Positions 8,941 through 37,207 of a DNA stretch of 64,000 nt are shown here, in pieces. A program made the position numbers and the translations under genes. Position 1 is the first letter of the stretch, and every line of letters begins with the position of its first letter. The notes beneath the pieces are model-generated. The model saw nothing but the letters and a program-made list of their open reading frames with translations, did no database searches and was not told the DNA's origin. Source of the DNA: Candidatus Heimdallarchaeota archaeon (GTDB lineage Archaea; Asgardarchaeota; Heimdallarchaeia; Heimdallarchaeales; Heimdallarchaeaceae); the NCBI GenBank assembly GCA_021399345.1, contig JAAFKI010000094.1:32001-96000 (forward strand). Reading direction: 5' to 3'.

Positions 8941-8950
8941 ATAAACTCAA

Positions 8951-10663: not shown

Positions 10664-10893
10664 ATTTCTTCACTACTTTAATTTAGTAAGCTCTGTTAAT
10701 ACTCCTTTAAAATATTTTCTATAAATCAACACTGTTCATTAAAGAAAATTGGAAAAAGCGATTGGAATTAGTCACTAAGTCTTAGTTTAGCTTCTTTACC
10801 CAATCTGGGAATATGTATCCCGAATATCCACAAAGTCTATAATTATTGCTAATATTGGCATTTGATTCCTAATTGATATCCAAACTATTGAGT

Positions 10894-11340: not shown

Positions 11341-11464
11341 TACAAATGACCTTCGTTAATATGATTTTTAAATCTGATGAGACTGACAAAAGAAAACTAT
11401 TAACTTACTTTCCGTTCTTTTTGATTTCAGAAAGATTTTTGTTTAATGAAAATACAATGAAGCT

Positions 11465-11659
11465 ATGCACATTGTAGTAAATTCAAAGCAAGAAAGAGAT
11501 ATTCTTATACAGTTATTCAACAGCTTAGAGAAGAAAGATATGAACTTTTTTTTGGATTTTGAAGATCCTTTATCTCTTCAAATTGAATCAATTTTTGATG
11601 ATCTATGTTCATGCGAGATACTAATAGACAAAGATGAAGAACCGTCCGGTATTGTCTGA
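11465..11659 (+). CDS. small acidic hypothetical protein
   Basis: 64-aa ORF with ATG start that fills the gap between genes. No motif recognised. Confidence 0.45.
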   Translation: MHIVVNSKQERDILIQLFNSLEKKDMNFFLDFEDPLSLQIESIFDDLCSCEILIDKDEEPSGIV

Positions 11660-11707
11660 AGAGCAAATACAATACAGTTATAATAGCTTTTTACCTATTA
11701 TTTTTAG

Positions 11708-13051
11708 ATGTGGAAAAAACCAGATAGTTGTCAAGAGTGCGGAAGTTTGCTTATAGGGGATTCATTACGTTGTCCTACTTGTGAGAAACTGCTATCTGTA
11801 ACTCCAATTCGAGGTCCATCTAAATCTGATATTTCTCTCACATCTATGTGGTCATTTAGAGATTTTCTTCCAGAATACCCAAAGCCTATTTCTTTGTATG
11901 AAGGTAACACACCACTTATTGAAGTTAAGAATATAGAGAATCTTGCAGATTTAAGTTTGAAGTTAGAATTCCGAAATCCTACTGGTTCTTTTCGAGATAG
12001 AGCTAGTTCTCTAATCATTTCAGATGTTGTTAAGAAAAAATACTCTCAAGTAATTGGTGCAAGTACAGGATCCTTTAGCATCAGTTTATCTGCTTATGCT
12101 GCAAAAGCAGGAATAAAATCTTTAAGTGTTGTTCCCCAGAATTTGGAACTATCTAAAATTGAACAATTGAAGGTCTATGGTAGTAATGTAATTGAAAAAG
12201 GTGATTCTGTAGAAGAATCTATTGCTGAAGCTGAAAGACTTAGTAAAGAAACCTCTGCTTATCTTGCAACTCCTGAAAATAATCTCTTAGCTATTGAAGG
12301 ACAGAAAACCTTAGGACTAGAAATTGTCTTGCAAAAAGAGTTATTTGATGCTTTAATTGTTCCAAGAGGTTCTGGATCTCTTATTTATTCTATCTATAGA
12401 GGATTAGAAGATGCACTTGCTTCAGGATGGATAGAAGAACTACCCAGAATCTATGCAATATCTTTAGAGAAAACAAAGAGTGCTTACATGGCTGAATCCT
12501 TAGAAATTGAGCAACCCTTTCTTTTGAAGGAAGTACAAGAAACAATTAAGTTTTCTAAAGGAAAAGAGATAGAAATTGATGCTCAACAGATGATTGAGGA
12601 AGCATTGAATCTTTCTAAAAAGGAAGGATTATTTATTGAACCAGCTTCAGCTTCTGTTTTAGCAGCTGCTGATGAGTTGATTAAAGAAGAAGAAATAAAT
12701 CCTCAACATAGTGTTGCGATTCTTTCTGGATCCGGTTTTAATGCACTTAATATATATGCTACTCAATTGAGAGATAAAAGAAAAGTTGTCTGGGGATTAT
12801 CTGAAAGTTCTACAACTAAATTCGAGATATTGAATCTTATTTCAGAAGGTAAAGCAACGTATGGAATTTCTCTATGGGAATCCTTAGGGCGAGCTAAATC
12901 TAAACAATCTATTTATCAGCATCTAAATGAACTTAAAGAGAAAGGGTTGATAGTTTTATCTGAACAAGACACCAAAATTAAGCAGTTCAAAGTAACAAAG
13001 AAAGGTTTTGAAACCTTAGAAAAAATGAGAAATCTCATAGATTTTCTTTAA
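11708..13051 (+). CDS. threonine-synthase-like fold type II PLP protein with active-site Lys->Arg, fused to C-terminal winged HTH
   Basis: N-terminal CxxC...CxxC, then EGNTPL and NPTGSFRDR (canonical FKDR), then EGLFIEPASA. The C-terminal SKQSIYQHLNELKEKGLI...VTKKG is a wHTH. Confidence 0.85.
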   Translation: MWKKPDSCQECGSLLIGDSLRCPTCEKLLSVTPIRGPSKSDISLTSMWSFRDFLPEYPKPISLYEGNTPLIEVKNIENLADLSLKLEFRNPTGSFRDRASSLIISDVVKKKYSQVIGASTGSFSISLSAYAAKAGIKSLSVVPQNLELSKIEQLKVYGSNVIEKGDSVEESIAEAERLSKETSAYLATPENNLLAIEGQKTLGLEIVLQKELFDALIVPRGSGSLIYSIYRGLEDALASGWIEELPRIYAISLEKTKSAYMAESLEIEQPFLLKEVQETIKFSKGKEIEIDAQQMIEEALNLSKKEGLFIEPASASVLAAADELIKEEEINPQHSVAILSGSGFNALNIYATQLRDKRKVVWGLSESSTTKFEILNLISEGKATYGISLWESLGRAKSKQSIYQHLNELKEKGLIVLSEQDTKIKQFKVTKKGFETLEKMRNLIDFL

Positions 13052-23262: not shown

Positions 23263-24276
23263 ATGAATAAAAAAGAAATTGAAGAGAATAATAGTTCTAA
23301 TAGTAATAGCAAGTTACAGATAGCATTTTATTGGGCTGCCAGTTGTGGTGGTTGTGAAATCGCTGTACTAGATATAAATGAAAAAATCTTGGATGTTGTT
23401 GCTCTTGCGGACATTCTTTTTTGGCCTGTAGCGTTAGATTTCAAGTATAAAGATGTTGAAGAAATGAAAGATAATCAGATAGATGTCTGTTTCTTCAACG
23501 GATCAGTTAGAACTTCTGAACAAAAATATCTAGCAGAATTACTTAGAAAAAAATCTAAGACTATGGTAGCTTTTGGTTCGTGTGCTGTTGCAGGAGGTAT
23601 TCCAGGTCTAGCTAATTTAACAAGTCGTGAGGAAATATTTCGTGTTGCTTACCTTGAGAATCCTTCTACCGCTAATCCTCAAGGAACCGTACCTAAAACT
23701 GAAGTTGAAGTAAAAGAAGGGATTTTGACTCTTCCTGAATTTTACGATGAGGTTAGGAGTCTCAACCAAGTTATTGATGTTGATTATTATTTGCCGGGGT
23801 GTCCTCCTCATCCTGATTTGATTATGACAGCTATTGAAGCTATAGTAGAAAACAATCTTCCTGAAAAAGGTTCAGTAATTGGGCCATTAAAATCTGTTTG
23901 TGATGAATGTAGATTTGAAAAATCAGAGAAGAAAATAGATTCCATTAAAAGAATTTACGAGCTTGAAACAATAGAAGATAAGTGTCTTCTAGAGCAAGGA
24001 ATTATTTGTTTAGGACCTGCTACACGTGGGGGGTGTGGTGCACAATGTCTAGATGCTAATATGCCCTGTACTGGATGTGGAGGACCAGCTCCTAATTCTA
24101 TTGATCAAGGTGCAAGTATGATGTCTGCTTTGGCTTCTATACTTGGACTAGAAGGAGAAGAGGAAATGAAAGAAGAAGAAGTAGAGAAGCTAATTGAACA
24201 AATAGTAGACCCAGTTGGTACTTTTTACAAATATGGCTTACCAACTGCTATAATCAATAGGAAGGCGAAAGAATGA
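23263..24276 (+). CDS. mvhG: group 3c [NiFe]-hydrogenase small subunit
   Basis: WAASCGGCE, FGSCAVAGG, LPGCPP and DPVGTFY. Confidence 0.93.
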   Translation: MNKKEIEENNSSNSNSKLQIAFYWAASCGGCEIAVLDINEKILDVVALADILFWPVALDFKYKDVEEMKDNQIDVCFFNGSVRTSEQKYLAELLRKKSKTMVAFGSCAVAGGIPGLANLTSREEIFRVAYLENPSTANPQGTVPKTEVEVKEGILTLPEFYDEVRSLNQVIDVDYYLPGCPPHPDLIMTAIEAIVENNLPEKGSVIGPLKSVCDECRFEKSEKKIDSIKRIYELETIEDKCLLEQGIICLGPATRGGCGAQCLDANMPCTGCGGPAPNSIDQGASMMSALASILGLEGEEEMKEEEVEKLIEQIVDPVGTFYKYGLPTAIINRKAKE

Positions 24277-25742
24277 CAAAAACTATTACAATTGATCCAG
24301 TAACAAGATTAGAGGGACACGGAAAGATAGTTATTTTTCTTACAGAAGAAGGAGATGTTGATAATGTTTATCTACAAATACCTGAGTTAAGAGGATTTGA
24401 ACGTTTTTCACAAGGAAGAAGAGCAGAAGACATGCCACAAATAACCTCTAGAATATGTGGTGTTTGTCCAGTAGCTCATCATTTCGCTTCAGCAAAAGCA
24501 TTAGATAGGGCTTTCAATGTCGACCCTCCTCCAGTTGCTAAAAAACTCAGAGAATTAATGTATTGTGGATATTTTATTTATGATCACATATTGCATTTTT
24601 ACTATTTAGGAGGGCCAGATTTTGTTGTAGGTCCAACTGCTCCAGCTGCTAAGAGAAACATATTAGGAGTCATTGAAAAAGCTGGAATTGAAATTGGGAA
24701 AGAAGTTATTAAACACAGAGCTTATGGACAAAAAATTACTGCTATCTTAGGTGGTAAAGCAACTCACCCAGTCTGTGGTTTGCCTGGAGGTGTATCTAAA
24801 TCACTTTCTTCAGATGAAGTTGCGGAAATCAAAACTATGGTCAAATCTTGTGTAGACTTTGCTCAATTCTCACTGAAACTCTTTGATGATATCGTTCTCA
24901 AAAATGAGGATTATGTTAATCTCATTCTAAGTGATCCTTATACTTTGAAGACTTACAACATGGGTTTGGTAGACGAAAACAACAAAGTAAATTTCTATGA
25001 TGGATTAATTCGTGTAACTGATACTCAAGGAAAAGAGTTTCTCAAATTTGATGTCAATGACTATTTCCAACATATAGACGAACATGTTGAAGAATGGAGT
25101 TATATTAAATTTCCATATCTGAAAAAGATTGGTTGGAATGGTTTCACTGATGGTCAAGAAAGCGGTGTTTATAGAGTAGGACCACTTGGAAGGTTAAATG
25201 CAGCAGATGGAATGGCAACTCCTTTAGCAGAAGCAGAAAACAAAAGGATGTATGAAACTCTAGGAGGAAAACCTATCAATTCTACATTAGCTTTTCATTG
25301 GGCAAGACTAATAGAACTATTATATGCAACAGAAAGAGCTCAAGAGCTGATAAATGAACCAGATATCACTTCCAAAAAAATCAGGAACCCAGTTGGACAA
25401 CCTGGTGAAGGAATAGGAGTAACTGAAGCAGCTCGGGGAACACTTATTCATCATTATAAGCTAGATGAGAAGGCTTTAATCGAAAAAGTAAATCTAGTTG
25501 TAGCTACAACTAATAATGCTGCAGCAATTAGTATGTCTATCAGAGAAGCTGCTAAAGGACTTATCAAGAAAGGGGTAGTCAATGATGGATTACTCAATAT
25601 GGTAGAAATGGCATTTAGGGCATATGATCCTTGTTTTGCATGTGCTACGCATTCACTTCCAGGTCAAATGCCTTTGGAAGTACAGATTTATTCACATGAA
25701 AAAAAATTACTCAAAACCATAAGGAGAGAAGATTCAAAATGA
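24273..25742 (+). CDS. mvhA: group 3c [NiFe]-hydrogenase large subunit
   Basis: TRLEGHG, L1 RICGVCPVAH, and L2 DPCFACATH followed by a SLPGQMPL extension. Confidence 0.94.
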   Translation: MTKTITIDPVTRLEGHGKIVIFLTEEGDVDNVYLQIPELRGFERFSQGRRAEDMPQITSRICGVCPVAHHFASAKALDRAFNVDPPPVAKKLRELMYCGYFIYDHILHFYYLGGPDFVVGPTAPAAKRNILGVIEKAGIEIGKEVIKHRAYGQKITAILGGKATHPVCGLPGGVSKSLSSDEVAEIKTMVKSCVDFAQFSLKLFDDIVLKNEDYVNLILSDPYTLKTYNMGLVDENNKVNFYDGLIRVTDTQGKEFLKFDVNDYFQHIDEHVEEWSYIKFPYLKKIGWNGFTDGQESGVYRVGPLGRLNAADGMATPLAEAENKRMYETLGGKPINSTLAFHWARLIELLYATERAQELINEPDITSKKIRNPVGQPGEGIGVTEAARGTLIHHYKLDEKALIEKVNLVVATTNNAAAISMSIREAAKGLIKKGVVNDGLLNMVEMAFRAYDPCFACATHSLPGQMPLEVQIYSHEKKLLKTIRREDSK

Positions 25743-26191
25743 CCGCAACTGAAACAAAAACTGAAATGGAGGAGTTTGAACCTAATATAATAGGTTTCTT
25801 ATGTAATTGGTGCAGTTATGCTGGAGCTGATTTAGCTGGAACCAGCAGGATACAATATCCCCCCAACATTAAGATTATCAAAGTGATGTGTTCTGGAAGA
25901 GTAAATCCAATGTATGTTGTTAATGCTCTTCAACAAGGAGCTGATGGTGTTTTAATCGGAGGTTGTCATCCTGGTGATTGTCATTATCAACATGGCAACT
26001 TGTTAGCTAGACGACGAATGGCAATTCTGAAGAATCTTCTGGAATTCATTGGGATAGATTCGAGGAGGGTTCGAATGACCTGGGTTAGCGCAGCTGAAGG
26101 TAGGAAATTTGCTGAAGTAATTAAAGAAGTTACTGAGGAGATAAAAAAGATTGGTCCAATGAAAGATATTCAGAGGGTGAATGAATGGTAG
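25739..26191 (+). CDS. mvhD: MvhD/FlxD [2Fe-2S] subunit
   Basis: FLCNWCSYAGADLAG, MCSGRV and GCHPGDCHY. Confidence 0.93.
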   Translation: MTATETKTEMEEFEPNIIGFLCNWCSYAGADLAGTSRIQYPPNIKIIKVMCSGRVNPMYVVNALQQGADGVLIGGCHPGDCHYQHGNLLARRRMAILKNLLEFIGIDSRRVRMTWVSAAEGRKFAEVIKEVTEEIKKIGPMKDIQRVNEW

Positions 26192-27168
26192 ATCAGCAAC
26201 TGCTTATAGAGGAAGTTAAGAAAGTTGTATCACGTGATGATGTTAAATATGTTATTGGCTATAAGAAAGGAACATCTGGTTTTGCAATAAGTCCAGCATT
26301 TGCTTATTCCACTGAATATGCAGATAAATTCATCTTTAACCCCTTATGCAAAAAGAATCTTGCTGCTTATCCCCTCTTAGAAGATAAACTTCCTTTGAAA
26401 CGAGGAGAAGAAGAGGATAAAAGAAAGATAGGCATTGTTGTAAAAGGGTGTGACTCTCGAGCATTGGTTCAGATTATCCAAGAGAAAGGTCTTAAACGTG
26501 AGGACTTAGTTATTATTGGCATTCCGTGTTCAGGTATTATTGATCACAAGAAAATTACAGCAAAATTCCCCAATGAAACATCTTATTCTGCGATAGAAGA
26601 AGAGCAAGGATTTTATAAAATTACTATTAATGGAGAAGTTCATGAAATTGCTAAAGAGGAACTGTTAGCCGATTACTGTACTAGTTGTATTGCTCCTAAT
26701 CCTGTAATTTATGATGTACTTATCGGGGAAGAGGTTGAACCTTGGAATTTAGAAGAGCATAAGAATCTTGATGTTCTAGAAGAAAAAGATGTTGGAGAGA
26801 GATGGGAATACTGGAAAGAACACTTTGATAGATGTATTCGATGCTATGCCTGTAGAGAAGCATGCCCATTGTGTTATTGTAAGGAATGTATGGCTGATCT
26901 TCTTAATCCTCAGTGGATTAGACGATCTGTAAATCTATCAGAAAATACTGCATGGAATATTATGCGAGCATATCATCTAGCAGGACGTTGCGTAGGGTGT
27001 GGAGAGTGTGAATCTGTTTGTCCTGTAAACATCCCTCTTATGGAACTAAACAAAGAGATTGAGAAAGACGTGAAAAATATGTTTGAATATTCTGCAGGTA
27101 TGGACTTGGAAGAAAAACCGTTGTTTGGTACCTTCCGACCTGATGATCCCGAGGAGTTTATTATGTGA
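26185..27168 (+). CDS. flxC: FlxC-like Fe-S protein
   Basis: KGCDSR, CIRCYACREACPLCYC, and HLAGRCVGCGECESVCP. Position fits flxDCBA order. Confidence 0.8.
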   Translation: MVDQQLLIEEVKKVVSRDDVKYVIGYKKGTSGFAISPAFAYSTEYADKFIFNPLCKKNLAAYPLLEDKLPLKRGEEEDKRKIGIVVKGCDSRALVQIIQEKGLKREDLVIIGIPCSGIIDHKKITAKFPNETSYSAIEEEQGFYKITINGEVHEIAKEELLADYCTSCIAPNPVIYDVLIGEEVEPWNLEEHKNLDVLEEKDVGERWEYWKEHFDRCIRCYACREACPLCYCKECMADLLNPQWIRRSVNLSENTAWNIMRAYHLAGRCVGCGECESVCPVNIPLMELNKEIEKDVKNMFEYSAGMDLEEKPLFGTFRPDDPEEFIM

Positions 27169-27174
27169 GGTGTT

Positions 27175-28206
27175 ATGATGGAAACATTAATTTTACAAAA
27201 AGACAAACTTACTAAACTGATTGAGAAACTCTCTTCCAGTCATGTTCTATATGGTCCTATTGAAGAAAATGGATTTTCATTGTTCAAGCAAATTAGGGAT
27301 TTCAAGGAACTAAACCTAAAATATCTTCTAACACGTGTCCCTCCAAAATCTCTTATCTTCAAACAGACAGAGACTCTATTCAAGTTTATACCAGGGAGAA
27401 AAGGCACAGTCACTTCGTCAGAAATAAATGAAGAGAAGAGTATAATTTTTGCAATTAGACCTTGTGATGCGCGTAGTTTTAAAATACTTGATCCAGTTTT
27501 CGAAGGGAATTTTGAAGATCCATTTTACATTTCAAAAAGGAAAAATACTGTTCTAATTGGATTAACTTGTAACTCTCCAGAGAAGAATTGTTTCTGCACT
27601 TCATTTGATGATAGTCCCGGTTCAACTGAAAATGTTGACATTCTTTTTACAGATTTAGATGATAAGTTCTTTGTAGAAGTAGTTACAGAAAAGGGTAAAA
27701 ATCTGATAAAATCAATAGAAGATGTATTTGAAAAATCTACAAAAAATGATGAAGATTCAAAGAGAAATATTGTGACCAATTCTGTTGAAAGTATCACAAG
27801 AAAAATGGATCTTGATGGATTAGTCCCTAAACTTGATAAGATGTTTGATCACGAATTATGGCATAATACTGCCCAAAAATGTATTGGATGTGGAATCTGT
27901 ACTTATTTGTGTCCGACATGTCATTGTTTTGATATGCAAGATGAATCTTCTCTGAGAGAAGGAGCAAGAATTCGTGTATGGGATTCGTGTATGTATCCTG
28001 AATACACTCATCATGCCTCAGGACACAATCCAAGAGCAATAAGAATGAGCAGAGTAAGAAATAGGGTTTATCACAAGTTCAGTTATTTCCCTAAGAATGA
28101 AGATATCACGGCTTGTACGGGTTGTGGGAGATGTATTGATTATTGTCCTGTAAATATTGATATAATTGATGTAATAGAAAAAGTGGGGGTCATAGCAAAT
28201 GAGTAA
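27175..28206 (+). CDS. flxB: FlxB-like (AsrA-like) Fe-S protein
   Basis: RPCDA, CFCTS, CIGCGICTYLCPTCHCF, WDSC and CTGCGRCIDYCP. Confidence 0.82.
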   Translation: MMETLILQKDKLTKLIEKLSSSHVLYGPIEENGFSLFKQIRDFKELNLKYLLTRVPPKSLIFKQTETLFKFIPGRKGTVTSSEINEEKSIIFAIRPCDARSFKILDPVFEGNFEDPFYISKRKNTVLIGLTCNSPEKNCFCTSFDDSPGSTENVDILFTDLDDKFFVEVVTEKGKNLIKSIEDVFEKSTKNDEDSKRNIVTNSVESITRKMDLDGLVPKLDKMFDHELWHNTAQKCIGCGICTYLCPTCHCFDMQDESSLREGARIRVWDSCMYPEYTHHASGHNPRAIRMSRVRNRVYHKFSYFPKNEDITACTGCGRCIDYCPVNIDIIDVIEKVGVIANE

Positions 28207-29038
28207 AAACCCATATAGTCCATGGTTAGCTACAATTTCTGGAATTAAACAAGAAGCTGTTGGTGAGAGACCTATTAAGACTTTCAAATTAGTTTTGGAA
28301 GACGAAGAAATAAGGAATAATTTCTCTTTTATTCCAGGTCAGTGTATTATGGTTAGTCTTTTTGGCACTGGTGAATGTTTCTTTGCTATTTCTTCTTCAC
28401 CAACTCAAAAGGAATACATAGAAGTGAGCGTTCTAAAATTGGGTAAAGTAACAACTGAGTTGCACCAATATGAACCTGGAGATTCAGTAGGATTGAGAGG
28501 TCCTTATGGTAATCACTTCAATGTGAAAGAGTGGGAAGGAAAGAATTTGTTATTTATTGGAGGAGGAATCGGTCAAGCTCCACTTCGTTCAATAATTAAT
28601 TTCGCTCTAGATAAACGAGAAAAATATGCAAATTTAGACATTATTTATGGAGCGAGAAGTACAAATGATTTGTGCTATAAAGAAGAATTCGCAGAATTAG
28701 GAAAGAGAGATGATGTAAATATCCATCTATCTATAGATGTTGAAGAAGAGGGGTGGAATGAATATGTTGGATTTGTTCCTGATAATCTAAAAAGATTGAA
28801 TCCAACTCCAGACAATACTATAGCGATAACGTGCGGACCTCCAATAATGATCAAATATGTAATTCAGAATTTAGAGGATCTTGGATTTGAAGATGACCAA
28901 ATTTTCACGACTCTAGAAATGAGAATGAAATGTGGAATAGGCATTTGTGGAAGATGTAACATAGGCAATCTCTATGTTTGTAAAGATGGTCCAGTATTTT
29001 CATATGGACAACTGAGAAATCTAGAAGGAGATATGTGA
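28199..29038 (+). CDS. flxA: FlxA-like FAD/NAD-binding oxidoreductase (AsrB-like)
   Basis: RGPYGN, GGGIGQAPLRS, TCGPPIM and MKCGIGICGRCNIG..VCKDGPVF. Confidence 0.85.
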   Translation: MSKNPYSPWLATISGIKQEAVGERPIKTFKLVLEDEEIRNNFSFIPGQCIMVSLFGTGECFFAISSSPTQKEYIEVSVLKLGKVTTELHQYEPGDSVGLRGPYGNHFNVKEWEGKNLLFIGGGIGQAPLRSIINFALDKREKYANLDIIYGARSTNDLCYKEEFAELGKRDDVNIHLSIDVEEEGWNEYVGFVPDNLKRLNPTPDNTIAITCGPPIMIKYVIQNLEDLGFEDDQIFTTLEMRMKCGIGICGRCNIGNLYVCKDGPVFSYGQLRNLEGDM

Positions 29039-29051
29039 AGGTGGTATAATA

Positions 29052-30998
29052 ATGAAGATAGGAGTTTACGTATGCGAATGTGGTATTAATATTAGTGCTA
29101 CAGTAAATGTACCTGAAGTTGTAGAGAGAATTAAAACACTCCCGAATGTAGAAAGCAGCCGTTATAGTAAGTACATTTGTTCTGATTCTGGGCAAGAGTT
29201 AATTAGAAAAGACATTAGAGAGCTGAATCTAGATAGAGTTGTGGTTGCTTCTTGTTCTCCTAGAATGCATGAACCAACATTTAGAGGAGTTGTTGAAGAA
29301 GAAGGAATGAATCCATATTGCCTTGAGATGGTTAATATTAGAGAACATGTTTCATGGGTACATTCTGATAAAGAAAGAGCTACAGAGAAAGCAATAAAAC
29401 TAATTTCTGGTGCTGTTGCTAGAGCACAATTTCTCGAACCATTAGAACGTAAGGAAGTAAGTGTTATTCCCAAATCATTGGTTATTGGTGGAGGTATAGC
29501 GGGTATTCAAGCTGCTTTAGAGATTGCAATTGATGGGTTTCAGGTCTATCTTGTTGATCGAAATCCAAGTATTGGCGGAAGAATGGCTCAATTAGATAAG
29601 ACTTTTCCAACCTTAGATTGTTCAGCATGTATTCTGGCACCTAAAATGGTGGATGCTGCAAGACACCCAAATATAGAACTCCTGACCTATTCAGAAATTG
29701 AGAAAGTTGATGGTTATATTGGTAATTTCAAAGTTACAGTCAAAAAGAAACCAAGATATGTAGATATCGAGAAATGTGTTGGGTGTGGACTCTGCGCTGA
29801 AGCATGTAGATTAAAAGGACGAGTTCTTAATGAATTTGATGAGAACCTAAGTAAAAGAAGCGCAATTTATATCCCATTTCCTCAAGCCGTTCCTTTTGTG
29901 TACACTATAGATCCGGAACGTTGCAATATGTTAAAATTTGGGAAATGTGGAGATGAACTACTTTGTGTTGGTGCTTGTGAACAAAATGCAATTAATTTTG
30001 ATCAGAAAGAAGAATTAGTGGAACTAGATGTTGGAACTATTGTTGTTGCAACAGGTTTTGATAATTTTGATCCATCATCAGAATTGAAGTATGGCTATAA
30101 GGAAAATGCAAGCGTAATAACAGGAATGGAATTTGAGAGAATTGTTAACGCTGCAGGTCCTACTGAAGGACATCTTGAAATTAATGGAAAAGAACCTGAG
30201 AATGTAGTATTTATCCAATGTGTTGGTTCTCGAGATAAAGAAGGACATGAATACTGCTCAAGAGTCTGCTGTATGTATACTGCTAAACAAGCACACATGG
30301 TCAGAGATAAATATCCCGATTCAAAAATAGCAGTTTATTTCACAGATGTTAGAGCTTTTGGTAAAGGGTTTGAGGAATTTTATAATAGAGTTAAAGATGA
30401 AGATGTTGAATACAGAAGAAGAGAATTAGATGATCCAATTCAAGTGGTCGGTAATGAAGGAGGAGTAATTGTTAAAGCTGAAGGTCATCCTGACATTCAT
30501 GCAGACTTGGTTGTGTTAGCAACAGGTTTGGTACCTAGAAAGGATAACAAAGAGCTAGCTAGAAAACTTAATATCAGCTTGAGCGCTGACGGTTTCCTTT
30601 TAGAAGCTCATCCAAAGCTCCGTCCTTTAGATACTTTTACAGATGGAATTTTCATAGCAGGTTGTTGTCAGAGTCCTAAAGACATACCAGATACAGTTGC
30701 ACAAGCAAGTGGAGCAGCAGTTAGAGCAGCAGCTCCTTTAGCTCAAGGTAAAGCTCAAGTTGAGGCCATTACTGCTACGATAAATGATGATTTGTGCAGT
30801 GGATGTCGTATTTGTGAGAAACTATGTGCTTATTCTGCTTTAGAATTTTCCAGTGATGATAAAATCATGAAGATAAATGATGTCTTGTGTAAAGGCTGTG
30901 GTTCATGTGCAGCTGCTTGTCCAACGGGTGCAATAAAAATGAAACACTATAGCAATAAGCAAGTCCTTGCTCAAATCGGGGGTATTTTAGCTAAATAG
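29052..30998 (+). CDS. hdrA: heterodisulfide reductase subunit A (flavin-based electron bifurcation)
   Basis: GVYVCECG, ASCSPRMHE, GGGIAG, DKTFPTLDCSACI, QCVGSRD, YCSRVCC and C-terminal ferredoxin. Confidence 0.95.
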   Translation: MKIGVYVCECGINISATVNVPEVVERIKTLPNVESSRYSKYICSDSGQELIRKDIRELNLDRVVVASCSPRMHEPTFRGVVEEEGMNPYCLEMVNIREHVSWVHSDKERATEKAIKLISGAVARAQFLEPLERKEVSVIPKSLVIGGGIAGIQAALEIAIDGFQVYLVDRNPSIGGRMAQLDKTFPTLDCSACILAPKMVDAARHPNIELLTYSEIEKVDGYIGNFKVTVKKKPRYVDIEKCVGCGLCAEACRLKGRVLNEFDENLSKRSAIYIPFPQAVPFVYTIDPERCNMLKFGKCGDELLCVGACEQNAINFDQKEELVELDVGTIVVATGFDNFDPSSELKYGYKENASVITGMEFERIVNAAGPTEGHLEINGKEPENVVFIQCVGSRDKEGHEYCSRVCCMYTAKQAHMVRDKYPDSKIAVYFTDVRAFGKGFEEFYNRVKDEDVEYRRRELDDPIQVVGNEGGVIVKAEGHPDIHADLVVLATGLVPRKDNKELARKLNISLSADGFLLEAHPKLRPLDTFTDGIFIAGCCQSPKDIPDTVAQASGAAVRAAAPLAQGKAQVEAITATINDDLCSGCRICEKLCAYSALEFSSDDKIMKINDVLCKGCGSCAAACPTGAIKMKHYSNKQVLAQIGGILAK

Positions 30999-31010
30999 GA
31001 GAGGAATATT

Positions 31011-34000
31011 ATGAAATTAGGAGTTTACGTATGCGAATGTGGTATTAACATTAGTGCAACAGTTGACGTTGAGAAAGTTGCTGAAGTTGCGAAAGATTTT
31101 CCGAATGTAGAAGTTAGTAGATTTTACAAGTACATGTGTTCAGAACCAGGTCAAGAACTTATCAAACAAGACATTGACAATCTTGGGTTAGATCGTATTG
31201 TAGTAGCTTCTTGTTCTCCTAGAATGCATGAACCAACATTTAGAGCTGTTGTTGAAGAAAAAGGAATGAATCCATATTGCCTTGAAATGGTTAATATTAG
31301 AGAACAAGATTCATGGGTACATAAAGATAAAGAAAAAGGAACGGAGAAAGCAATTTCATTGGTAAGAAGTGGAGTTCTCAAAGCATCTCTTCTAAAACCT
31401 CTGATTAAGAAAAAAGTAGGGGTAACTCCAAATGCTCTTGTTATAGGTGGTGGAATAGCAGGTATTCAAGCTGCTTTAGATATTGGAAATATGGGTTTTC
31501 ACACATATTTAGTCGAAAAAACACCTAGTATTGGAGGAAGAATGGCTCAATTAGATAAGACTTTTCCAACCTTAGATTGTTCAGCATGTATTTTAACACC
31601 AAAAATGGTAGATGTAGCTCGTCATCCAAATGTAGAGCTTATGACCTATTCTGAGATAGAAAAAGTTGAAGGATTTGCAGGTAATTTCAAAGTTTCAGTA
31701 AAAAAGAAGCCACGTTTTGTAGATGTAAACAAATGTACTGCGTGTGGTGACTGTGTAGAAAATTGTCCTGTAATAGAGCTGGATGATTATAATGAAAATA
31801 TGACGACTAGAAAAGCAATCTACATACCTTTTCCTCAAGCTGTTCCTAAGAAATACGTTATTGCTAAATTAGAGGAATACTCTCCATGTAAAGCAACATG
31901 TCCTGCAAGTAATAATGCTCAAGGATACGTTCAGCTTATAGGAGTGGGAAAATTTAAGGAATCTCTAGAAGTAATCCGCGATAAAAATCCCTTTCCCTCA
32001 GTTTGTGGTAGGGTTTGTCATCATCCTTGTGAAGAGGTTTGTAAAAGAGCCGAAATTGATGAACCTGTATCAATAATGCAATTAAAAAGATTCGCTGCAG
32101 ATTATAACAGATTACATGATGAACCTCCTCCAGAAGTTATAGAACCTACAAAAGAAGAGAAAATAGCTATTATTGGAGCTGGACCTTCAGGACTTTCCTG
32201 TGCTATTAGATTACTTGAGCAAGGATATCCTGTAACTGTCTATGATGAAGCAGATATACCTGGGGGGATTATGACAAGTTGTCTTCCTTCTTATCGTCTT
32301 CCTCCAGATTTAGCATTATATGATATAAACCGATTATTAGACCAAGGAATAGATTTGATAAAAAACATTAAAGTTGGAAAAGATATTTCTTTTGATGAAA
32401 TTAAGAATAAGTATGATGCTGTCTTCGTAGGAATTGGAGCTCAACTCCCTGCTGTTCTAGAAGTTGAAGGATCTGGTGTTTCAGGAATTCTAGAAGGAAT
32501 AACTTTCCTAAAGGATGCGAAAAAGGGGATAAAAACACCAGAATTTGGAGAAAAAATTATTGTTATTGGTGGTGGAAACGTAGCGATGGATAGTGCTAAA
32601 GTTGCACTACGAATGGGAGCAAAAGAAGTCAATGTTGTTTGTCTAGAGACGAGAGATTTAGCTTTGAAAGATAGAATGCCTGCTGACATATGGGAAATAG
32701 AAGAATCAGAAGAGGAAGGTGTAATTTTCTATAATGAACTAGGTCCCAAAAAGATACTTAGCAAGAAAGGAAAAGTTACAGGTTTAGAAACCATAATTTG
32801 TATTTCAGTTTATGAAGAAGATGGTTCATTCAGACCAGAATTTCATGATGATCCTTCTCCTGTTATTGAAGGTGATACTATTATCTTTGCTATAGGACAG
32901 AAATCTGATCTAACAGGTTTTGAGGAAATTGAGACAAATCCTGGTGGTAGAACAATAAAGATTGATCCTATAACCTTTGAAACAAATATTCCAGGAATAT
33001 TTGCAGGGGGAGACATTGTCCCAGGTGTACCATCTGTAGTCAATGCAATAGGAATGGGTGCCGAAGCTGCAATTTCAATTGACAGATATCTACGAAAAGT
33101 TGACATTAAGGAAGGTAGGGTTAGAGATATAACTAAGATAGATTTTGTCAGACTTGATAAAGAGAAACGTCCTAGAGCGAAAATGAAACGCGCTCCTGTT
33201 GAGGAAAGAATAAAGGATTTCCGAGAAATTGATTTAGGATATACTGAGGAAGAAGCTGTTCAAGAGGCACTAAGATGTATCTCTTGTTCGATCTGTTCTG
33301 AATGTATGCAATGTGTTGAAACATGTGAAGCAGAAGCTATAATTCATGATCAAGAAGTTGAATATGTTGAACTAGACATAGGAGCAATAGTTGTTGCAAC
33401 AGGATTTGACAATTATGACCCAAGTAACAAACCTGAATATGGATATGGTCAAACTTCAAATGTTCTTACAGGTATGGAATTTGAAAGATTAGTTTCAGCT
33501 TCAGGACCAACAGTTGGTCATATTGAGATCAATGGAAAAGAACCCGAGAATGTAGTTTTTATCCAATGCGTTGGTTCAAGGGATAAAGAAGGACATAAAT
33601 ACTGCTCAAGAGTCTGCTGTATGTATACAGCTAAACAAGCTCATATGGTAAGAGACAAATTACCAAATTCTAAATTGACTGTTTATAACACAGATGTTAG
33701 AGCATTTGGGAAAGGATTCGAGGAATTCTATAATAGAGTACAAGCTGAAGATGTTGAATACAGAAGAAGAGAATTAGATGATTCAATTCAAGTGGTCGGT
33801 AATGAAAAGGGAGTTATTGTCAAAGCAGAAGGACATCCAGATATTCATGCAGATCTTGTTGTATTAGCAACTGGTTTAATCCCTAGAGAAGATTCCAAAG
33901 AACTATCTAGGTTATTGAATATTAGCATGAGTGAAGATGGATTTTACTTAGAAGCTCATCCAAAGCTCCGACCTGTAGATACTTTTACAGATGGTGTTTT

Positions 34001-34364
34001 CTTAGCAGGATGCTGCCAAAGCCCCAAAGATATACCTGATACAGTAGCTCAAGCTAGTAGTGCTGCATCAAGAGCATGTAATATACTCTCACAAAAAGAA
34101 TTGGAAATAGAAGCAACAATTGCTCATGTTGATGAGAGTTTGTGTAGAGGATGTGGACTCTGCGTTGAATCATGTCCGTATTCAGCAATAGAACTCAAGA
34201 TAATTAATCAATTCGGATACGAAACTGAAGTGGCAAGTGTTAATGAAGCCTTATGTAAAGGATGTGGAAGTTGTGCAGCAGCTTGTTTGAATGGTGCGAT
34301 TAACCATCTTGGATACACTGATCATCAAATACTTGCACAAATAAAAGCATTAGGAGAAAAATAA
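31011..34364 (+). CDS. hdrL: large HdrA-like protein (HdrL) with inserted GltD-like NAD(P)H-binding flavin domain
   Basis: HdrA N- and C-terminal parts flank PCKATCP, VCGRVCHHPCE, GAGPSG and IGGGNVAMD. Confidence 0.9.
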   Translation: MKLGVYVCECGINISATVDVEKVAEVAKDFPNVEVSRFYKYMCSEPGQELIKQDIDNLGLDRIVVASCSPRMHEPTFRAVVEEKGMNPYCLEMVNIREQDSWVHKDKEKGTEKAISLVRSGVLKASLLKPLIKKKVGVTPNALVIGGGIAGIQAALDIGNMGFHTYLVEKTPSIGGRMAQLDKTFPTLDCSACILTPKMVDVARHPNVELMTYSEIEKVEGFAGNFKVSVKKKPRFVDVNKCTACGDCVENCPVIELDDYNENMTTRKAIYIPFPQAVPKKYVIAKLEEYSPCKATCPASNNAQGYVQLIGVGKFKESLEVIRDKNPFPSVCGRVCHHPCEEVCKRAEIDEPVSIMQLKRFAADYNRLHDEPPPEVIEPTKEEKIAIIGAGPSGLSCAIRLLEQGYPVTVYDEADIPGGIMTSCLPSYRLPPDLALYDINRLLDQGIDLIKNIKVGKDISFDEIKNKYDAVFVGIGAQLPAVLEVEGSGVSGILEGITFLKDAKKGIKTPEFGEKIIVIGGGNVAMDSAKVALRMGAKEVNVVCLETRDLALKDRMPADIWEIEESEEEGVIFYNELGPKKILSKKGKVTGLETIICISVYEEDGSFRPEFHDDPSPVIEGDTIIFAIGQKSDLTGFEEIETNPGGRTIKIDPITFETNIPGIFAGGDIVPGVPSVVNAIGMGAEAAISIDRYLRKVDIKEGRVRDITKIDFVRLDKEKRPRAKMKRAPVEERIKDFREIDLGYTEEEAVQEALRCISCSICSECMQCVETCEAEAIIHDQEVEYVELDIGAIVVATGFDNYDPSNKPEYGYGQTSNVLTGMEFERLVSASGPTVGHIEINGKEPENVVFIQCVGSRDKEGHKYCSRVCCMYTAKQAHMVRDKLPNSKLTVYNTDVRAFGKGFEEFYNRVQAEDVEYRRRELDDSIQVVGNEKGVIVKAEGHPDIHADLVVLATGLIPREDSKELSRLLNISMSEDGFYLEAHPKLRPVDTFTDGVFLAGCCQSPKDIPDTVAQASSAASRACNILSQKELEIEATIAHVDESLCRGCGLCVESCPYSAIELKIINQFGYETEVASVNEALCKGCGSCAAACLNGAINHLGYTDHQILAQIKALGEK

Positions 34365-34367
34365 AGG

Positions 34368-34862
34368 TTGAGATCAATAATAATAGGATTAGGAAACCCT
34401 ATAGTAGGAGACGATGCTATTGGCATCAAAGTTATGGAGCACATTAGGGACACGTTTTCTCCTATAAAAAATACTGAAATCTTGGCTGATATATCTATTG
34501 CAGGTTTGGGGTTAGTGGAATTGATTCGAGGATATGACAGCGTTATACTTGTAGATTCAATTCAAACAGGAAAGAATTCAGTAGGAACAGTAATACAGCT
34601 TCGACCTGAAGAATTTTCACTTGCTTCACATACTTCGCATTATCACAACATAGATATCTTTACAGCTTTGGAATTTAGTAATCAAATATATGACGATGTT
34701 CCAAAGGATATCAAAATCATCGGGATAGAAATCATGAATCCTATGGAGTTTAGTGATGAATTATCATTTGAACTCCAAAATAAGTTTGAAGGAATCGTTA
34801 ATCAAGTTTATCAAACAATCATTCAAGAATTAAAAGAGGAAATAACAGCAAATATCGTATGA
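34368..34862 (+). CDS. hydrogenase maturation endopeptidase
   Basis: IIGLGNPIVGDDAIG, LVDS and SHYH. TTG start. Confidence 0.88.
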   Translation: MRSIIIGLGNPIVGDDAIGIKVMEHIRDTFSPIKNTEILADISIAGLGLVELIRGYDSVILVDSIQTGKNSVGTVIQLRPEEFSLASHTSHYHNIDIFTALEFSNQIYDDVPKDIKIIGIEIMNPMEFSDELSFELQNKFEGIVNQVYQTIIQELKEEITANIV

Positions 34863-34901
34863 AGATAACAAATTCAGTATAAATAATAAAGGAGAAAAAA
34901 A

Positions 34902-35318
34902 ATGGAAGATTATGAACCCAATATTATCGGCTTTCTATGTAATTGGTGCGCATATGCTGGCGCCGATCTAGCTGGAACTAGTAGAATTAAATACCCGCCT
35001 AACATTAAAATAATCCGAGTCATGTGTTCAGGGAGAATTGATCCAGTATTTGTTCTAGAATCATTTAGAAAAGGAGCAGATGGCGTATTAATCGGAGCTT
35101 GTCATTTTGGTGAGTGCCACTATAAATCTGGAAATCATAAAGCTAGTCGACGAATAAAACTCACAAAGAAATTTTTGGAAGAGATGGGAATTAATCCTAA
35201 TAGAGTTAGATTTGAGTTTGTCTCTGCCTCAGAAGGACATAAATTTGCAGAAGTTGTAACAGAATTTGTAGACGAACTAAAAAAACTTGGCCCTCTTTCT
35301 CTACAGCTGATTCAATAA
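34902..35318 (+). CDS. mvhD: second MvhD [2Fe-2S] subunit
   Basis: FLCNWCAYAGADLAG, MCSGRID and ACHFGECHY. GGAG SD upstream. Confidence 0.93.
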   Translation: MEDYEPNIIGFLCNWCAYAGADLAGTSRIKYPPNIKIIRVMCSGRIDPVFVLESFRKGADGVLIGACHFGECHYKSGNHKASRRIKLTKKFLEEMGINPNRVRFEFVSASEGHKFAEVVTEFVDELKKLGPLSLQLIQ

Positions 35319-35497
35319 CTTAAGGTAATTGTTATAGATATAAATCACCAGTTTTTTACCTATATATTTCTGTTATTTTTATAACCTTACTTTTGTTTAA
35401 TTAGCGTCATCAACATTAGTATAGGCATGCTCAGACAATTACATTTATAGTATAATGCTTTGAGTTTGATACAATTTTGAAAAAAATCGGTGAACCT

Positions 35498-37207
35498 ATG
35501 ACTAAAAAAGTGTTGATTGTTGGTGGAGTGGCTGGTGGAGCTTCAACTGCTGCAAGACTAAGAAGACTAGAAGAAACTACAGAAATAGTTATGCTAGAAA
35601 AAGGACCATTTGTATCTTTCGCAAATTGTGGATTACCATATTATGTGGGAAAAGTGATTAAAGAAAAAGAAACATTGGAAGTAATGAAACCTGGTGATTT
35701 CAGAACTAAATTCAATATTGATGTTAGAACTAACTCTGAAGTATTATCAATTAATAGAGAGAAAAAACAGGTTATTGTTAAGAATCATAAAACAGAAGAA
35801 GAATACTCTCTTGATTATGACAATCTAGTTTTATCTCCTGGAGCTGAATGTTTAAGACCCAATTTTAAAGGGATAAACGACGTTCCTGTATTTACATTAA
35901 GAAACATTCCAGATACCTTGGCTATAGAGGATTTCATAACAAAGAATAATCCAACTACAGCTGTTGTTATCGGTGGAGGATATGTTGGCTTAGAGATGGC
36001 AGAAAATCTTTCTTTTAGAGGAATAAGAGTATCTTTAATTGAACTTCTTGATCAAGTTATGCCTACAATGGATAAAGATATGGCTCAATTTATAAACAAT
36101 GAAATAGTATTGAACCGTATTCAACTTATTCTCGGTGATGGTGTTAAATCCTTTAGCAAAACTAATTCAGGAAGTAAGAAATACATAGTTGCTACTCAAA
36201 GTGGGAAGAAATTAGAAACAGATTTGATTATTCTTTGTATTGGAGTAAGACCTCAAACTGAATTAGCTAAAGGTTGTGATCTAGAACTTACTGAACGTGG
36301 ATATATTGTTGTTAATGACAATATGAAGACATCTGATCCTGCTATATATGCTGTAGGTGATGCAATTCAAATTACCAACCTTATAACACATAAAAAAACT
36401 GCAGTACCTTTAGCTGGACCTGCAAATCGTCAGGGGAGAATTGCTGCTGATAACATAGCTGGAAGAGATTCAAAGTATAAGGGAGCATTAGGTACAGCAG
36501 TACTGCAAGTATTTAGTAAAACAGCTGCACAAACAGGTTTAACTGAAAGACAACTGAATGCCCTAGAAATAGAGTATGAAAAAATCTATGTTCATCCCAA
36601 AAACCATGCTGGGTATTATCCAGAAGCACAAGCTATAGCAATGAAATTGATTTTCGATAAGAAAAATGGAAAAATCTTGGGAGCTCAAGCTGTAGGAGGA
36701 CCTGGAACTGAAAAAAGGATAGATGTATTATCAACTGTTATCTACTTCGGTGGAACAGTATACGATTTACAAGATCTTGAATTGTGTTATGCTCCTCCAT
36801 TTAGTTGCGCAAGAGATTGTGTTAACATGGCTGGTTTTGTTGCTTCTAATGTTCATTCTGGTGAAGTGAAGTTGTGTCAATGGAATGAAACTGAAGAACT
36901 CAAATCAAATGGAGGAATCATAGTAGATGTAAGACCACCTGAAACTTTTGAGGAAGGACATATTGAAGATTCAATTAATATCCCCCTAGGTCAGCTAAGA
37001 TCTAGACTAGATGAACTTCCAAAGGATAAACAAATTTGTGTGCATTGTCAAGTTGGATTTTCATCTTATCTTGCATACAGAATTCTTACTCAAAATGGTT
37101 TCAATGTGATTAACCTTACTGGTGGATATGATACATACCAAATCTCCAATTTACCACCTGGTGGTCATGTAGGGGAACTCAAACCCTTTTCAGATCAAGG
37201 TTGTTAA
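35498..37207 (+). CDS. CoA-disulfide/persulfide reductase with C-terminal rhodanese domain (CoADR-RHD / Npsr-like)
   Basis: GGVAGGAS, SFANCGLPYY (redox Cys), GGGYVGLE, YAPPF and rhodanese VHCQVG. Start placed at ATG 35498 behind a GGTGA SD. Confidence 0.92.
   Translation: MTKKVLIVGGVAGGASTAARLRRLEETTEIVMLEKGPFVSFANCGLPYYVGKVIKEKETLEVMKPGDFRTKFNIDVRTNSEVLSINREKKQVIVKNHKTEEEYSLDYDNLVLSPGAECLRPNFKGINDVPVFTLRNIPDTLAIEDFITKNNPTTAVVIGGGYVGLEMAENLSFRGIRVSLIELLDQVMPTMDKDMAQFINNEIVLNRIQLILGDGVKSFSKTNSGSKKYIVATQSGKKLETDLIILCIGVRPQTELAKGCDLELTERGYIVVNDNMKTSDPAIYAVGDAIQITNLITHKKTAVPLAGPANRQGRIAADNIAGRDSKYKGALGTAVLQVFSKTAAQTGLTERQLNALEIEYEKIYVHPKNHAGYYPEAQAIAMKLIFDKKNGKILGAQAVGGPGTEKRIDVLSTVIYFGGTVYDLQDLELCYAPPFSCARDCVNMAGFVASNVHSGEVKLCQWNETEELKSNGGIIVDVRPPETFEEGHIEDSINIPLGQLRSRLDELPKDKQICVHCQVGFSSYLAYRILTQNGFNVINLTGGYDTYQISNLPPGGHVGELKPFSDQGC

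Follow-up and report, generated by a model that had tools for sequence, protein, structure and literature searches.

Organization of the operon

The stretch of 64,000 nucleotides analysed here (the window) is part of contig C21 of a Candidatus Heimdallarchaeota assembly (G000; 3.27 Mb in 199 contigs, 88.6% complete). It carries an operon that joins the genes of a [NiFe] hydrogenase, Mvh, to those of a Flx module and of two paralogues of the heterodisulfide reductase subunit HdrA. Ten consecutive open reading frames (ORFs) on the plus strand fill positions 23263-35318, in the order mvhG-mvhA-flxD-flxC-flxB-flxA-hdrA-hdrL-protease-mvhD, their products being identified by Pfam and NCBIfam profile searches (Table 1). 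From mvhG to the protease gene, adjacent ORFs overlap by 4-8 nucleotides (nt) or are spaced by 3-13 nt, while the last gene, mvhD2, has a gap of 39 nt upstream and of 158 nt downstream. HdrB and HdrC are not encoded in the operon, and the whole of contig C21 is without a match to the CCG domain (PF02754). A first-pass annotation of the window had claimed these gene identities, the tight packing and the absence of CCG-domain HdrB and HdrC, and all three claims hold. Its general idea, a hydrogenase coupled to NAD(P)H and ferredoxin on two HdrA paralogues with two MvhD adaptors, is upheld as well. In the form developed below, there is about an even chance that the operon encodes one self-contained, reversible [NiFe] hydrogenase that would depend on NAD(P)H and ferredoxin and would have no thiol/disulfide partner.

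Hydrogenase, MvhD and Flx subunits

MvhA has intact ligand motifs, L1 (RICGVCPVAH) at residue 60 and L2 (DPCFACATH) at residue 452. A tail of 29 residues lies C-terminal of L2, which fits MvhA as the putative substrate of the operon's own endopeptidase; the latter scores 1.9e-24 against TIGR00072, over the cut-off of that model. The best NCBIfam models are VhuA for MvhA (5e-126) and VhuG for MvhG (2.7e-64), each under the equivalog cut-off of its model. For MvhA, the VhuA score is far ahead of those for HydA and ShyA, and the protein is only about 27% identical to the 3b-type HydA orthologues that adjoin sister operons. The pair of a 3b-type large and a 3b-type small subunit that marks a group 3b sulfhydrogenase is therefore not found in this operon. 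Among solved structures, the best matches of MvhA are 7t2r_D (4e-117) and 5odc_F, an MvhA (3e-111).

The two adaptors, MvhD1 (FlxD) and MvhD2, are 64% identical and have five Cys in common at equivalent positions. FlxD is closer (76%) to its orthologue, the FlxD encoded on another contig of the same assembly, C112, whose FlxC and FlxB are 65% and 62% identical to those of the window. As a query, mvhD2 is the better of the two window genes (55-58% identity) for the mvhD beside mvhG in genomes G007 and G003; for the mvhD of G004 and G021 the C112 FlxD is slightly ahead (51-54%). Judged by these identities, mvhD2 is the MvhD type found adjoining mvhG and hdrL in related operons. FlxA carries a CxxxxCxxC...C motif at its C-terminus and belongs to the superfamily of sulfhydrogenase gamma, PyrK and NfnA (PRK08345, 1.8e-76; HydG, 1.9e-63). 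It matches NF004862 weakly, as a member of the same superfamily as NfnA; its counterpart by orthology, however, is a Flx subunit whose cluster has no NfnB-like part. FlxA, FlxB, FlxC and FlxD are all present adjoining hdrA, which identifies the set as Flx.

HdrA, HdrL and the NfnB-like insert

HdrA matches solved HdrA chains over its full length (8rvu, 8.8e-226; 5odc, 2.8e-220) and has every cluster Cys motif of the six-cluster pattern. Its K412 aligns with Lys409 of 5ODC, which hydrogen-bonds N5 of the bifurcating FAD (flavin adenine dinucleotide; PMC6405883). It is 51% identical to the HdrA of C112 and 69% identical to both HdrA halves of HdrL. In HdrL, residues 2-281 and 757-1113 match HdrA (8rvu_a) and the stretch of about 289-768 is matched by NfnB-like modules. 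Retained in HdrL are the Cys197 motif, the cluster motif of the thioredoxin-reductase domain, all HdrA Cys motifs and the lysine of CCMYTAK. The bifurcating-FAD residue is retained in both HdrA copies, a point on which the first-pass reading depended. The Cys197 motif and the N-terminal domain are also kept in both, so that nothing forces a heterodimer; the predicted HdrA/HdrL heterodimer is plausible.

The insert of HdrL has two [4Fe-4S] motifs and the FAD and NAD(P)H Rossmann motifs, all intact. Its best matches in the PDB are 9bov_A (7.5e-103), 8oh5_C and 9n5u_A, followed by 5jca_L (NfnI) and 4ylf_B (NfnB). The PSYRLP of the insert aligns with PEFRLP of 4ylf_B, and its arginine is the equivalent of Arg187 of NfnB, the residue that contacts N5 of b-FAD in Thermotoga maritima (PMC6405883). 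The module is inserted after IYIPFPQAVPKK, at a point of the inserted ferredoxin domain that lies between its two cluster motifs. Published work, a structure paper of 2026 included, assigns that domain to the low-potential exit of HdrA to ferredoxin, HdrBC being fed via the cluster of the thioredoxin-reductase domain, not via the inserted ferredoxin domain (PMC9012536, PMC13518236). The earlier suggestion that this GltD-like domain replaces HdrB as the high-potential branch is therefore a poor fit, since the insert interrupts the low-potential exit, and since HdrL-type subunits also adjoin hdrC-hdrB in G007 and G004. A role of the insert as a substitute for HdrB is unlikely.

HdrBC and other redox genes of the host

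A PF02754 search of the whole assembly finds CCG proteins on two other contigs. Contig C112 has flxD-flxC-flxB-flxA-hdrA-hdrC-hdrB, followed by genes for a Fer4 protein and a FAD_binding_2 flavoprotein, the cluster lying downstream of 2-oxoacid:ferredoxin oxidoreductase genes. Contig C182 encodes an HdrD-like CCG protein (Fer4_8 and two CCG domains). These proteins rule out an HdrBC-free genome. C112 is the only place in the assembly with hdrC-hdrB, next to an HdrA of its own. For a complex that works without HdrBC, as the first-pass annotation had it, the presence of hdrBC elsewhere in the genome is thus unfavorable and the freedom of contig C21 itself from CCG matches is favorable.

The only other hydrogenase-like catalytic subunit found in the assembly is a 448-residue protein on C135 (G000; 32145-33113) that resembles NuoD and group 4 [NiFe] large subunits (NiFeSe_Hases N-terminus and Complex1_49kDa). 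Neither an [FeFe] hydrogenase nor RnfD was found in the assembly, which is 88.6% complete.

The two genes that follow hdrB on C112 (L006; 7894-10280) encode a Fer4 protein of 238 residues and a flavoprotein of 557 residues that is like SdhA, FrdA and AprA. The same pair occurs in L034-L036, L052 and L055-L077; it follows hdrB or flxA/flxD, and among Heimdall loci it belongs to the type II and type IV arrangements described below. It is also present in many bacterial hdrCB-hdrA-flx clusters (Aminicenantes, Eubacteriales, Stahlbacteria), and it may be a candidate acceptor module of those Flx-Hdr complexes. The HdrD-like protein of C182 (L005, 9483-12519) has 397 residues and adjoins a GlcD-like FAD_binding_4 flavoprotein and a GcvH lipoyl carrier protein. 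Its gene is kept in nearly all genomes of the genus. Two genes for Arf-family GTPases lie about 1 kb downstream of this locus.

Arrangements across the genus and beyond

The genus was sampled through 25 Heimdallarchaeota genomes (G, C and L are our labels for genomes, contigs and loci). The window order, without hdrBC, is called type I; its MvhA is present at 83% identity or more in 12 of the 25. The order is seen, in full or truncated by a contig end, in G001, G006, G013, G011, G014, G012, G015, G024, G009 and the metagenome-assembled genome (MAG) 8H_bin2. At least seven further genomes of the genus have the same genes in the same order, a recurrence far beyond chance. No type I contig carries a CCG gene, among them the contigs of G001, G006, G013, G011, G014, G012, G015 and 8H_bin2, which include contigs of 134 kb and 59 kb, and hdrCB was seen inside an orthologous type I operon in none of the genomes and in none of the gene orders. 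The parts are conserved as a set, with intact cofactor motifs and with hdrBC absent in cis.

Three other arrangements include hdrCB. Type II, as on C112, is flxDCBA-hdrACB-fer4-FADb2. Type III is hdrC-hdrB-hdrL'-mvhD-mvhG-mvhA, in G007 and G004, and type IV is hdrA'-mvhD-mvhG-mvhA-hdrA-hycI-hdrC-hdrB-fer4-FADb2, in G003 and G021. The fullest type IV operon, G004:C76, has flxDCBA inserted after mvhA. It thus holds the whole part list of the window (Mvh, Flx, two HdrA, two MvhD and the protease) together with HdrCB, the place of HdrL being taken by a plain HdrA'. An HdrACB core of type II or IV is present in 23 of the 25 genomes, with or without type I, and G015 carries type I plus a complete Mvh-HdrA2-HdrCB operon. 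CCG proteins are found in 24 of the 25. No genome with the window gene set and without any CCG protein was found, all three non-Heimdall genomes tested having CCG proteins as well. When type III (hdrCB, hdrL and mvhDGA) is set against type I (flxDCBA, hdrA, hdrL and mvhDGA), flxDCBA and the second hdrA occupy, by gene content, the type I slot that is held by hdrCB in type III. The other proposal of the first-pass annotation, Flx in place of HdrB, is compatible with this gene content.

These arrangements bear on whether HdrBC might be supplied in trans, the Mvh/Flx-HdrA-HdrL proteins recruiting HdrC and HdrB from the flx-hdrACB cluster of the other contig. In such a complex H2 and/or NAD(P)H would reduce an unknown disulfide plus ferredoxin. 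The genes for it are at hand: hdrC-hdrB is present in this genome, and of the 12 type I genomes at least 10 have it next to an HdrA of type II or type IV, obvious assembly gaps being present in the other two. The same part list shares one operon with hdrCB in G004:C76, and HdrL-type subunits neighbor hdrCB in type III operons. Both HdrA paralogues of the window also keep the thioredoxin-reductase-domain cluster that passes electrons to HdrC in Mvh-Hdr (PMC9012536). However, hdrCB always comes with its own HdrA, in a cluster that is present regardless of type I, and it never enters the orthologous type I operons. In the HdrA tree (see below), the type I HdrA and HdrL belong to a clade different from that of the HdrAs, from types II and IV and from bacteria, that adjoin hdrCB, and the presence of both operons in G015 suggests distinct roles. 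Such split encoding is unlikely in our view.

The HdrBC-less part list recurs in other gene orders, which argues for a functional unit. Outside the genus, locus L050, in a record whose label, Undinarchaeota, is doubtful given the genome size of 3.6 Mb, is hdrA-hdrL(split)-flxDCBA-mvhD-mvhGA-hycI, and L053, labelled Archaeoglobales, is hdrA-flxDCBA-hdrL; both are without HdrBC, and both genomes have CCG proteins at other sites. The operon could instead encode two separate, co-transcribed enzymes, one resembling a 3b sulfhydrogenase (MvhAG with FlxBA, and possibly FlxC and FlxD) and the other an Nfn-type NAD(P)H:ferredoxin oxidoreductase or transhydrogenase (HdrA-HdrL-MvhD2). FlxB and FlxA are indeed homologous to sulfhydrogenase beta and gamma, and the divergent operon upstream is a true 3b operon built of the same module types. 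In Desulfobacterium autotrophicum and Syntrophobacter fumaroxidans, MvhD comes after HdrL without a hydrogenase (PMC2702500, PMC5947623), and the insert retains the b-FAD arginine and the clusters of NfnB. However, adaptors of the FlxD/MvhD type are known only as links to HdrA-type subunits, and the window FlxDCBA share 62-76% identity with their counterparts in the canonical flx-hdrACB cluster, which serve HdrA there. Moreover, the four modules co-occur in three different gene orders, and hdrL-mvhD-mvhGA are directly linked in type III. We regard two enzymes as quite improbable.

Some variation in cluster motifs is seen among the HdrA paralogues. In the window HdrA, the second cluster motif of the inserted ferredoxin domain (residues 291-309) is oddly spaced, Cx7Cx5Cx3C (RCNMLKFGKCGDELLCVGAC). 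The same spacing is present in the seven Heimdall type I HdrA orthologues examined, and the motif of L050 is similarly non-canonical; that of HdrL is canonical, CxxCxxCxxxC. The first inserted-ferredoxin motif of type I HdrA ends in CR, not CP. In the HdrAs of types II and IV and of G007, by direct inspection of the sequences, the motif of the thioredoxin-reductase-domain cluster and the lysine is present with small differences. The DCSxC (Cys197) motif was not found by a pattern scan in the type III HdrL' of G007 (L024, G007:C56, 7047-10424); all other paralogues have it. Loci L045 (labelled Thermoplasmatales) and L050 have hdrA-hdrL sets that are 63-76% identical to the Heimdall ones, L045 also with an adjacent 3b-type operon. 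Mislabelled records or a transfer of the operon may be the explanation.

A Bfu-type module at the HdrL position

In G012, 8H_bin2, L050, G004:C107 and a Stahlbacteria MAG, the HdrL slot is taken by three ORFs. The first fuses the N-terminal half of HdrA to a NuoE-like [2Fe-2S] domain. The second is a NuoF-like subunit with flavin mononucleotide (FMN) and NADH sites and, at its C-terminus, a ferredoxin domain, and the third starts with a Fer2_4 [2Fe-2S] domain of the NuoG-N type, continues with further Cys motifs and ends with the C-terminal half of HdrA. The NuoF-like subunit matches 9bov_B, 7t2r_B (3.6e-232), 9n5u_B, 8oh5_B and HydB chains over the full length; 7t2r_B is subunit B of the NiFe-HydABCSL entry, which couples NADH and ferredoxin. 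The window operon itself has no such BfuB (NuoF-like, FMN) and BfuC (NuoE-like) core. The Bfu break lies immediately behind the first cluster motif, about 28 residues upstream of where the NfnB-type module enters. Since the break points differ in this way, a swap of NfnB-like and NuoEFG-like cassettes at one junction is ruled out. Altogether, at least six arrangements are made up from the Mvh, Flx, HdrA, HdrCB, NfnB-like and Bfu-like modules. That two unrelated modules for NAD(P)H and ferredoxin occupy one site points to NAD(P)H and electrons of low potential as the substrates.

When the HdrA halves of 30 sequences are concatenated and analysed by maximum likelihood, with the root at the midpoint, the tree divides into two clades that are both supported at 100/100. 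To clade A belong all HdrAs encoded next to hdrCB, whether in types II and IV or in bacterial loci. Clade B comprises the type I HdrA, the proteins at the HdrL position and, on a long branch, the type III pair. In this second clade, the type I proteins of the split form and those of the NfnB type are sister to each other, and the two type III forms are sisters (100/100), which indicates that the module type was exchanged at least twice. The direction of exchange is not inferred from a midpoint root.

The fusion of the HdrA N-terminal half to NuoE has at least 120 public matches, with a query coverage of about 100% and identities of 53-95%, under generic names and in records from Asgard archaea, Euryarchaeota, Planctomycetes/Phycisphaerae and Spirochaetales. 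For an HdrA split by NuoEF, the literature searched yields only the Bam-Bfu precedent. In L029 (G025:C151, about 8312-12261, minus strand), from a relative in the same taxonomic order, NuoE-like and NuoF-like genes are followed by an ORF of about 1160 residues. This ORF joins a NuoG-N-like part to an NfnB-like module and resembles Stn/NfnABC-type transhydrogenases (8oh5, 9bov).

Proposed function

The subunit contacts, substrates, stoichiometry and direction that we infer for the complex make up the following scheme. A soluble multi-flavin complex would couple H2/H+ reversibly to NAD(P)H/NAD(P)+ and ferredoxin. HdrA and HdrL would form its dimeric core, as HdrA does in Mvh-Hdr. MvhAG-MvhD2 is predicted to dock on HdrL, and FlxABC-FlxD on HdrA, because of their adjacency in related operons. 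The Flx branch would lead to NAD(P)+ in the place held by HdrCB in those operons. The NfnB-like flavin module in the low-potential exit of HdrL would be a second, on-board site coupling NAD(P)H to low-potential electrons. In a peptide-fermenting, syntrophic Heimdall archaeon the complex would most likely run toward H2, confurcating NAD(P)H and reduced ferredoxin.

In favor of a self-contained enzyme, all catalytic and cofactor motifs are intact in Mvh, MvhD, HdrA, HdrL and the insert. The flx-hdrACB cluster has its own HdrA and is kept irrespective of type I, and the HdrA and HdrL of the window fall in a fully supported clade apart from the HdrAs beside hdrCB (types II and IV, bacteria). The best solved relative of MvhA, by sequence comparison, is the large subunit of the NiFe-HydABCSL entry. 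Known bifurcating hydrogenases act on H2, NAD+ and ferredoxin, the potentials being given in PMC9304861.

Other observations weigh against this reading. This genome has genes for HdrBC and an HdrD-like protein, as do nearly all type I genomes, so that supply in trans is possible. G004:C76 joins Mvh, Flx, two HdrA and two MvhD with HdrCB in one operon, and HdrL-type subunits adjoin hdrCB in G007, in G004 and in the Stahlbacteria MAG, which means that the modules are compatible with HdrBC. The NuoD/group 4-like subunit means that the complex need not be the sole outlet for ferredoxin. Canonical MvhD and FlxD both feed electrons into the HdrA flavin, and Flx as an exit branch, as proposed here, would run against its canonical input role. 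Finally, every characterized group 3c hydrogenase oxidizes H2 in vivo (PMC11216029).

A more specific version of the proposal, which is possible but doubtful, is that two kinds of bifurcating center would be set back to back through low-potential Fe-S chains in one subunit, with NAD(P)+, reached via Flx, replacing the heterodisulfide. One center would be the HdrA-type FAD; the other would be the NfnB-type FAD or, interchangeably, the FMN core of the Bfu type. If this is true, a group 3c enzyme could let Heimdall archaea produce or consume H2 with NAD(P)H and ferredoxin, no thiol cofactor being needed, and the 'unidentified heterodisulfide' would drop out of models of Asgard syntrophy.

Comparison with known systems

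The window operon resembles MvhAGD-HdrABC (5ODC, 8RVU) in its group 3c-like MvhA with MvhG, in MvhD, and in a full-length HdrA with the FAD-N5 lysine and six cluster motifs. It differs in having no HdrB and HdrC and in adding a second, NfnB-inserted HdrA, a second MvhD and the FlxABC module for NAD(P)H. Since the host is not a methanogen, the heterodisulfide of coenzymes M and B (CoM-S-S-CoB) is not expected as a substrate. With FlxABCD-HdrABC, proposed for Asgard archaea (PMC7015854) and represented here by C112, it shares closely related Flx genes followed by hdrA. However, the C112 cluster continues with hdrC-hdrB-fer4-FAD_binding_2 and has no hydrogenase, whereas the window has mvhGA, hdrL, the protease gene and mvhD2.

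HdrL of D. autotrophicum and the HdrABC/HdrL of S. fumaroxidans also have a GltD-like NAD(P)H-binding part, and mvhD follows (PMC2702500, PMC5947623). In D. autotrophicum, mvhD after hdrL is the rule and a tandem hdrL/hdrA locus exists (PMC2702500); in the window mvhD2 follows hdrL after the protease gene, matching that rule. Unlike the window, these loci of sulfate reducers have no MvhA and are linked to hdrABC, dsr or fdh, while HdrL of the window is archaeal and its linked genes are those of a [NiFe] hydrogenase and Flx. In HdrA9-11 of ANME-1 archaea, Chadwick et al. described an NfnB-like insertion of about 500 residues in the inserted ferredoxin domain (PMC9012536). The insertion is of the same kind, and in the same HdrA domain, as in the window, and two bifurcation sites and a heterodimer of HdrA paralogues were suggested there also. 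However, the ANME-1 clusters, from another lineage, have FdhB-like and HdrBC genes and no Mvh-Flx operon, and a further difference is that both HdrA and HdrL of the window keep Cys197 and the N-terminal domain.

The net chemistry proposed for the window, H2 with NAD(H) and ferredoxin, is that of NiFe-HydABCSL and other Bfu hydrogenases (7T2R; PMC9304861), whose complete NuoE/NuoF/NuoG-N core is shared by the sister operons with split HdrA. These enzymes differ in having a BfuBC core and no HdrA-type subunits, where the window would use FAD sites of the HdrA and NfnB types. Bfu and HdrA-type modules are combined in Bam-Bfu (BamBCDEFGHI, a class II benzoyl-CoA reductase), for which tandem bifurcation has been proposed (PMC9304861). 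In Bam-Bfu the partner is a tungsten benzoyl-CoA reductase and the modules are separate subunits; in the window and sister operons a hydrogenase is the partner, and HdrA either has the NAD(P)H module spliced in or is split by it. A 2025 preprint finds that Asgard [NiFe] clusters neighbor COG0543, HdrB or HdrA genes (10.1101/2025.02.26.640444).

HdrL, NfnB-inserted HdrA, Flx-Hdr and Mvh-Hdr are thus already described. In the literature searched, no description was found of an Mvh-Flx-HdrA-HdrL architecture without HdrBC, of the set of arrangements within one genus, or of the Bfu-split HdrA. Models of Asgard metabolism and of a syntrophic origin of eukaryotes rest on H2 exchange via MvhADG-HdrABC, for which they need a heterodisulfide that is unidentified in these archaea (PMC7015854, PMC11291895); the complex proposed here would need none. 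The conserved Heimdall operon offers a testable alternative, direct coupling of H2, NAD(P)H and ferredoxin. The genus is a natural experiment on which modules interchange, and it exposes a widespread, generically annotated HdrA-Bfu chimera.

Table 1. Positions of the operon genes, the upstream operon (both in the window) and the split HdrA/Bfu loci
Feature	Product	Position	Strand	Profile or structural match
mvhG	[NiFe] hydrogenase small subunit, 337 aa, 13 Cys	23263..24276	+	Pfam Oxidored_q6 1.8e-26
mvhA	group 3c-like [NiFe] large subunit, 489 aa	24273..25742	+	Pfam NiFeSe_Hases
flxD (MvhD1)	[2Fe-2S] adaptor, 150 aa	25739..26191	+	Pfam FlpD 8.7e-58
flxC	Fe-S protein, 327 aa, 16 Cys	26185..27168	+	Pfam Fer4 families
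flxB	AsrA/sulfhydrogenase-beta-like Fe-S protein, 343 aa	27175..28206	+	Pfam Fer4_22 4.5e-34; NCBIfam ShyB 1.4e-66
flxA	FAD/NAD(P)H-binding [2Fe-2S] flavoprotein, 279 aa	28199..29038	+	Pfam FAD_binding_6, NAD_binding_1, DHODB_Fe-S_bind
hdrA	complete HdrA, 648 aa	29052..30998	+	end-to-end match to solved HdrA chains
hdrL	HdrA with NfnB/GltD-like module inside inserted ferredoxin domain, 1117 aa	31011..34364	+	
insert of hdrL	NfnB/GltD-like module, about residues 282-756	31854..33278	+	Pfam Fer4_20, Pyr_redox_2
protease gene	hydrogenase maturation endopeptidase (HycI/HyaD family), 164 aa	34368..34862	+	Pfam HycI 1.2e-08
mvhD2	second [2Fe-2S] adaptor, 138 aa	34902..35318	+	Pfam FlpD 1.1e-56
3b-type operon	HydB 403 aa, HydG 284 aa, HydD 264 aa, HydA 429 aa, HycI-type protease 152 aa	18328-22934	minus	
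split HdrA/Bfu locus		L049:10001-14938		
split HdrA/Bfu locus		L033:6492-11450		
split HdrA/Bfu locus		L050:10001-14973		
split HdrA/Bfu locus		L074:10001-14321		
split HdrA/Bfu locus		L025:2975-7930	minus	

Neighboring genes

At 35477-37207, 158 nt past mvhD2, lies a gene for a flavoprotein with Pyr_redox_2, Pyr_redox_dim and Rhodanese domains, resembling coenzyme A (CoA)-disulfide or persulfide reductases. Its product suggests another explanation, namely that the complex would have a third substrate, with this downstream NAD(P)H persulfide/CoA-disulfide system as the candidate, and that the flavin modules would merely tune electron input. The gene follows mvhD2 in G009 and G011 as in the window, and the substrates of Asgard Hdr are unidentified (PMC11291895). 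However, it is absent in G001, G006 and G013, its orientation is reversed in G012 and G014, and type I operons were not seen to have any other conserved partner gene next to them. We consider a third substrate of this kind very improbable. The variable presence and orientation rule out the gene as a member of the operon, and the conserved unit thus ends at mvhD2.

On the other side, a divergent operon of the group 3b sulfhydrogenase type, with a protease gene of its own, lies upstream and shares a 328-bp intergenic region with mvhG. The pairing of the 3b-type operon with type I is kept in G001, G006, G013, G024, G009 and 8H_bin2.

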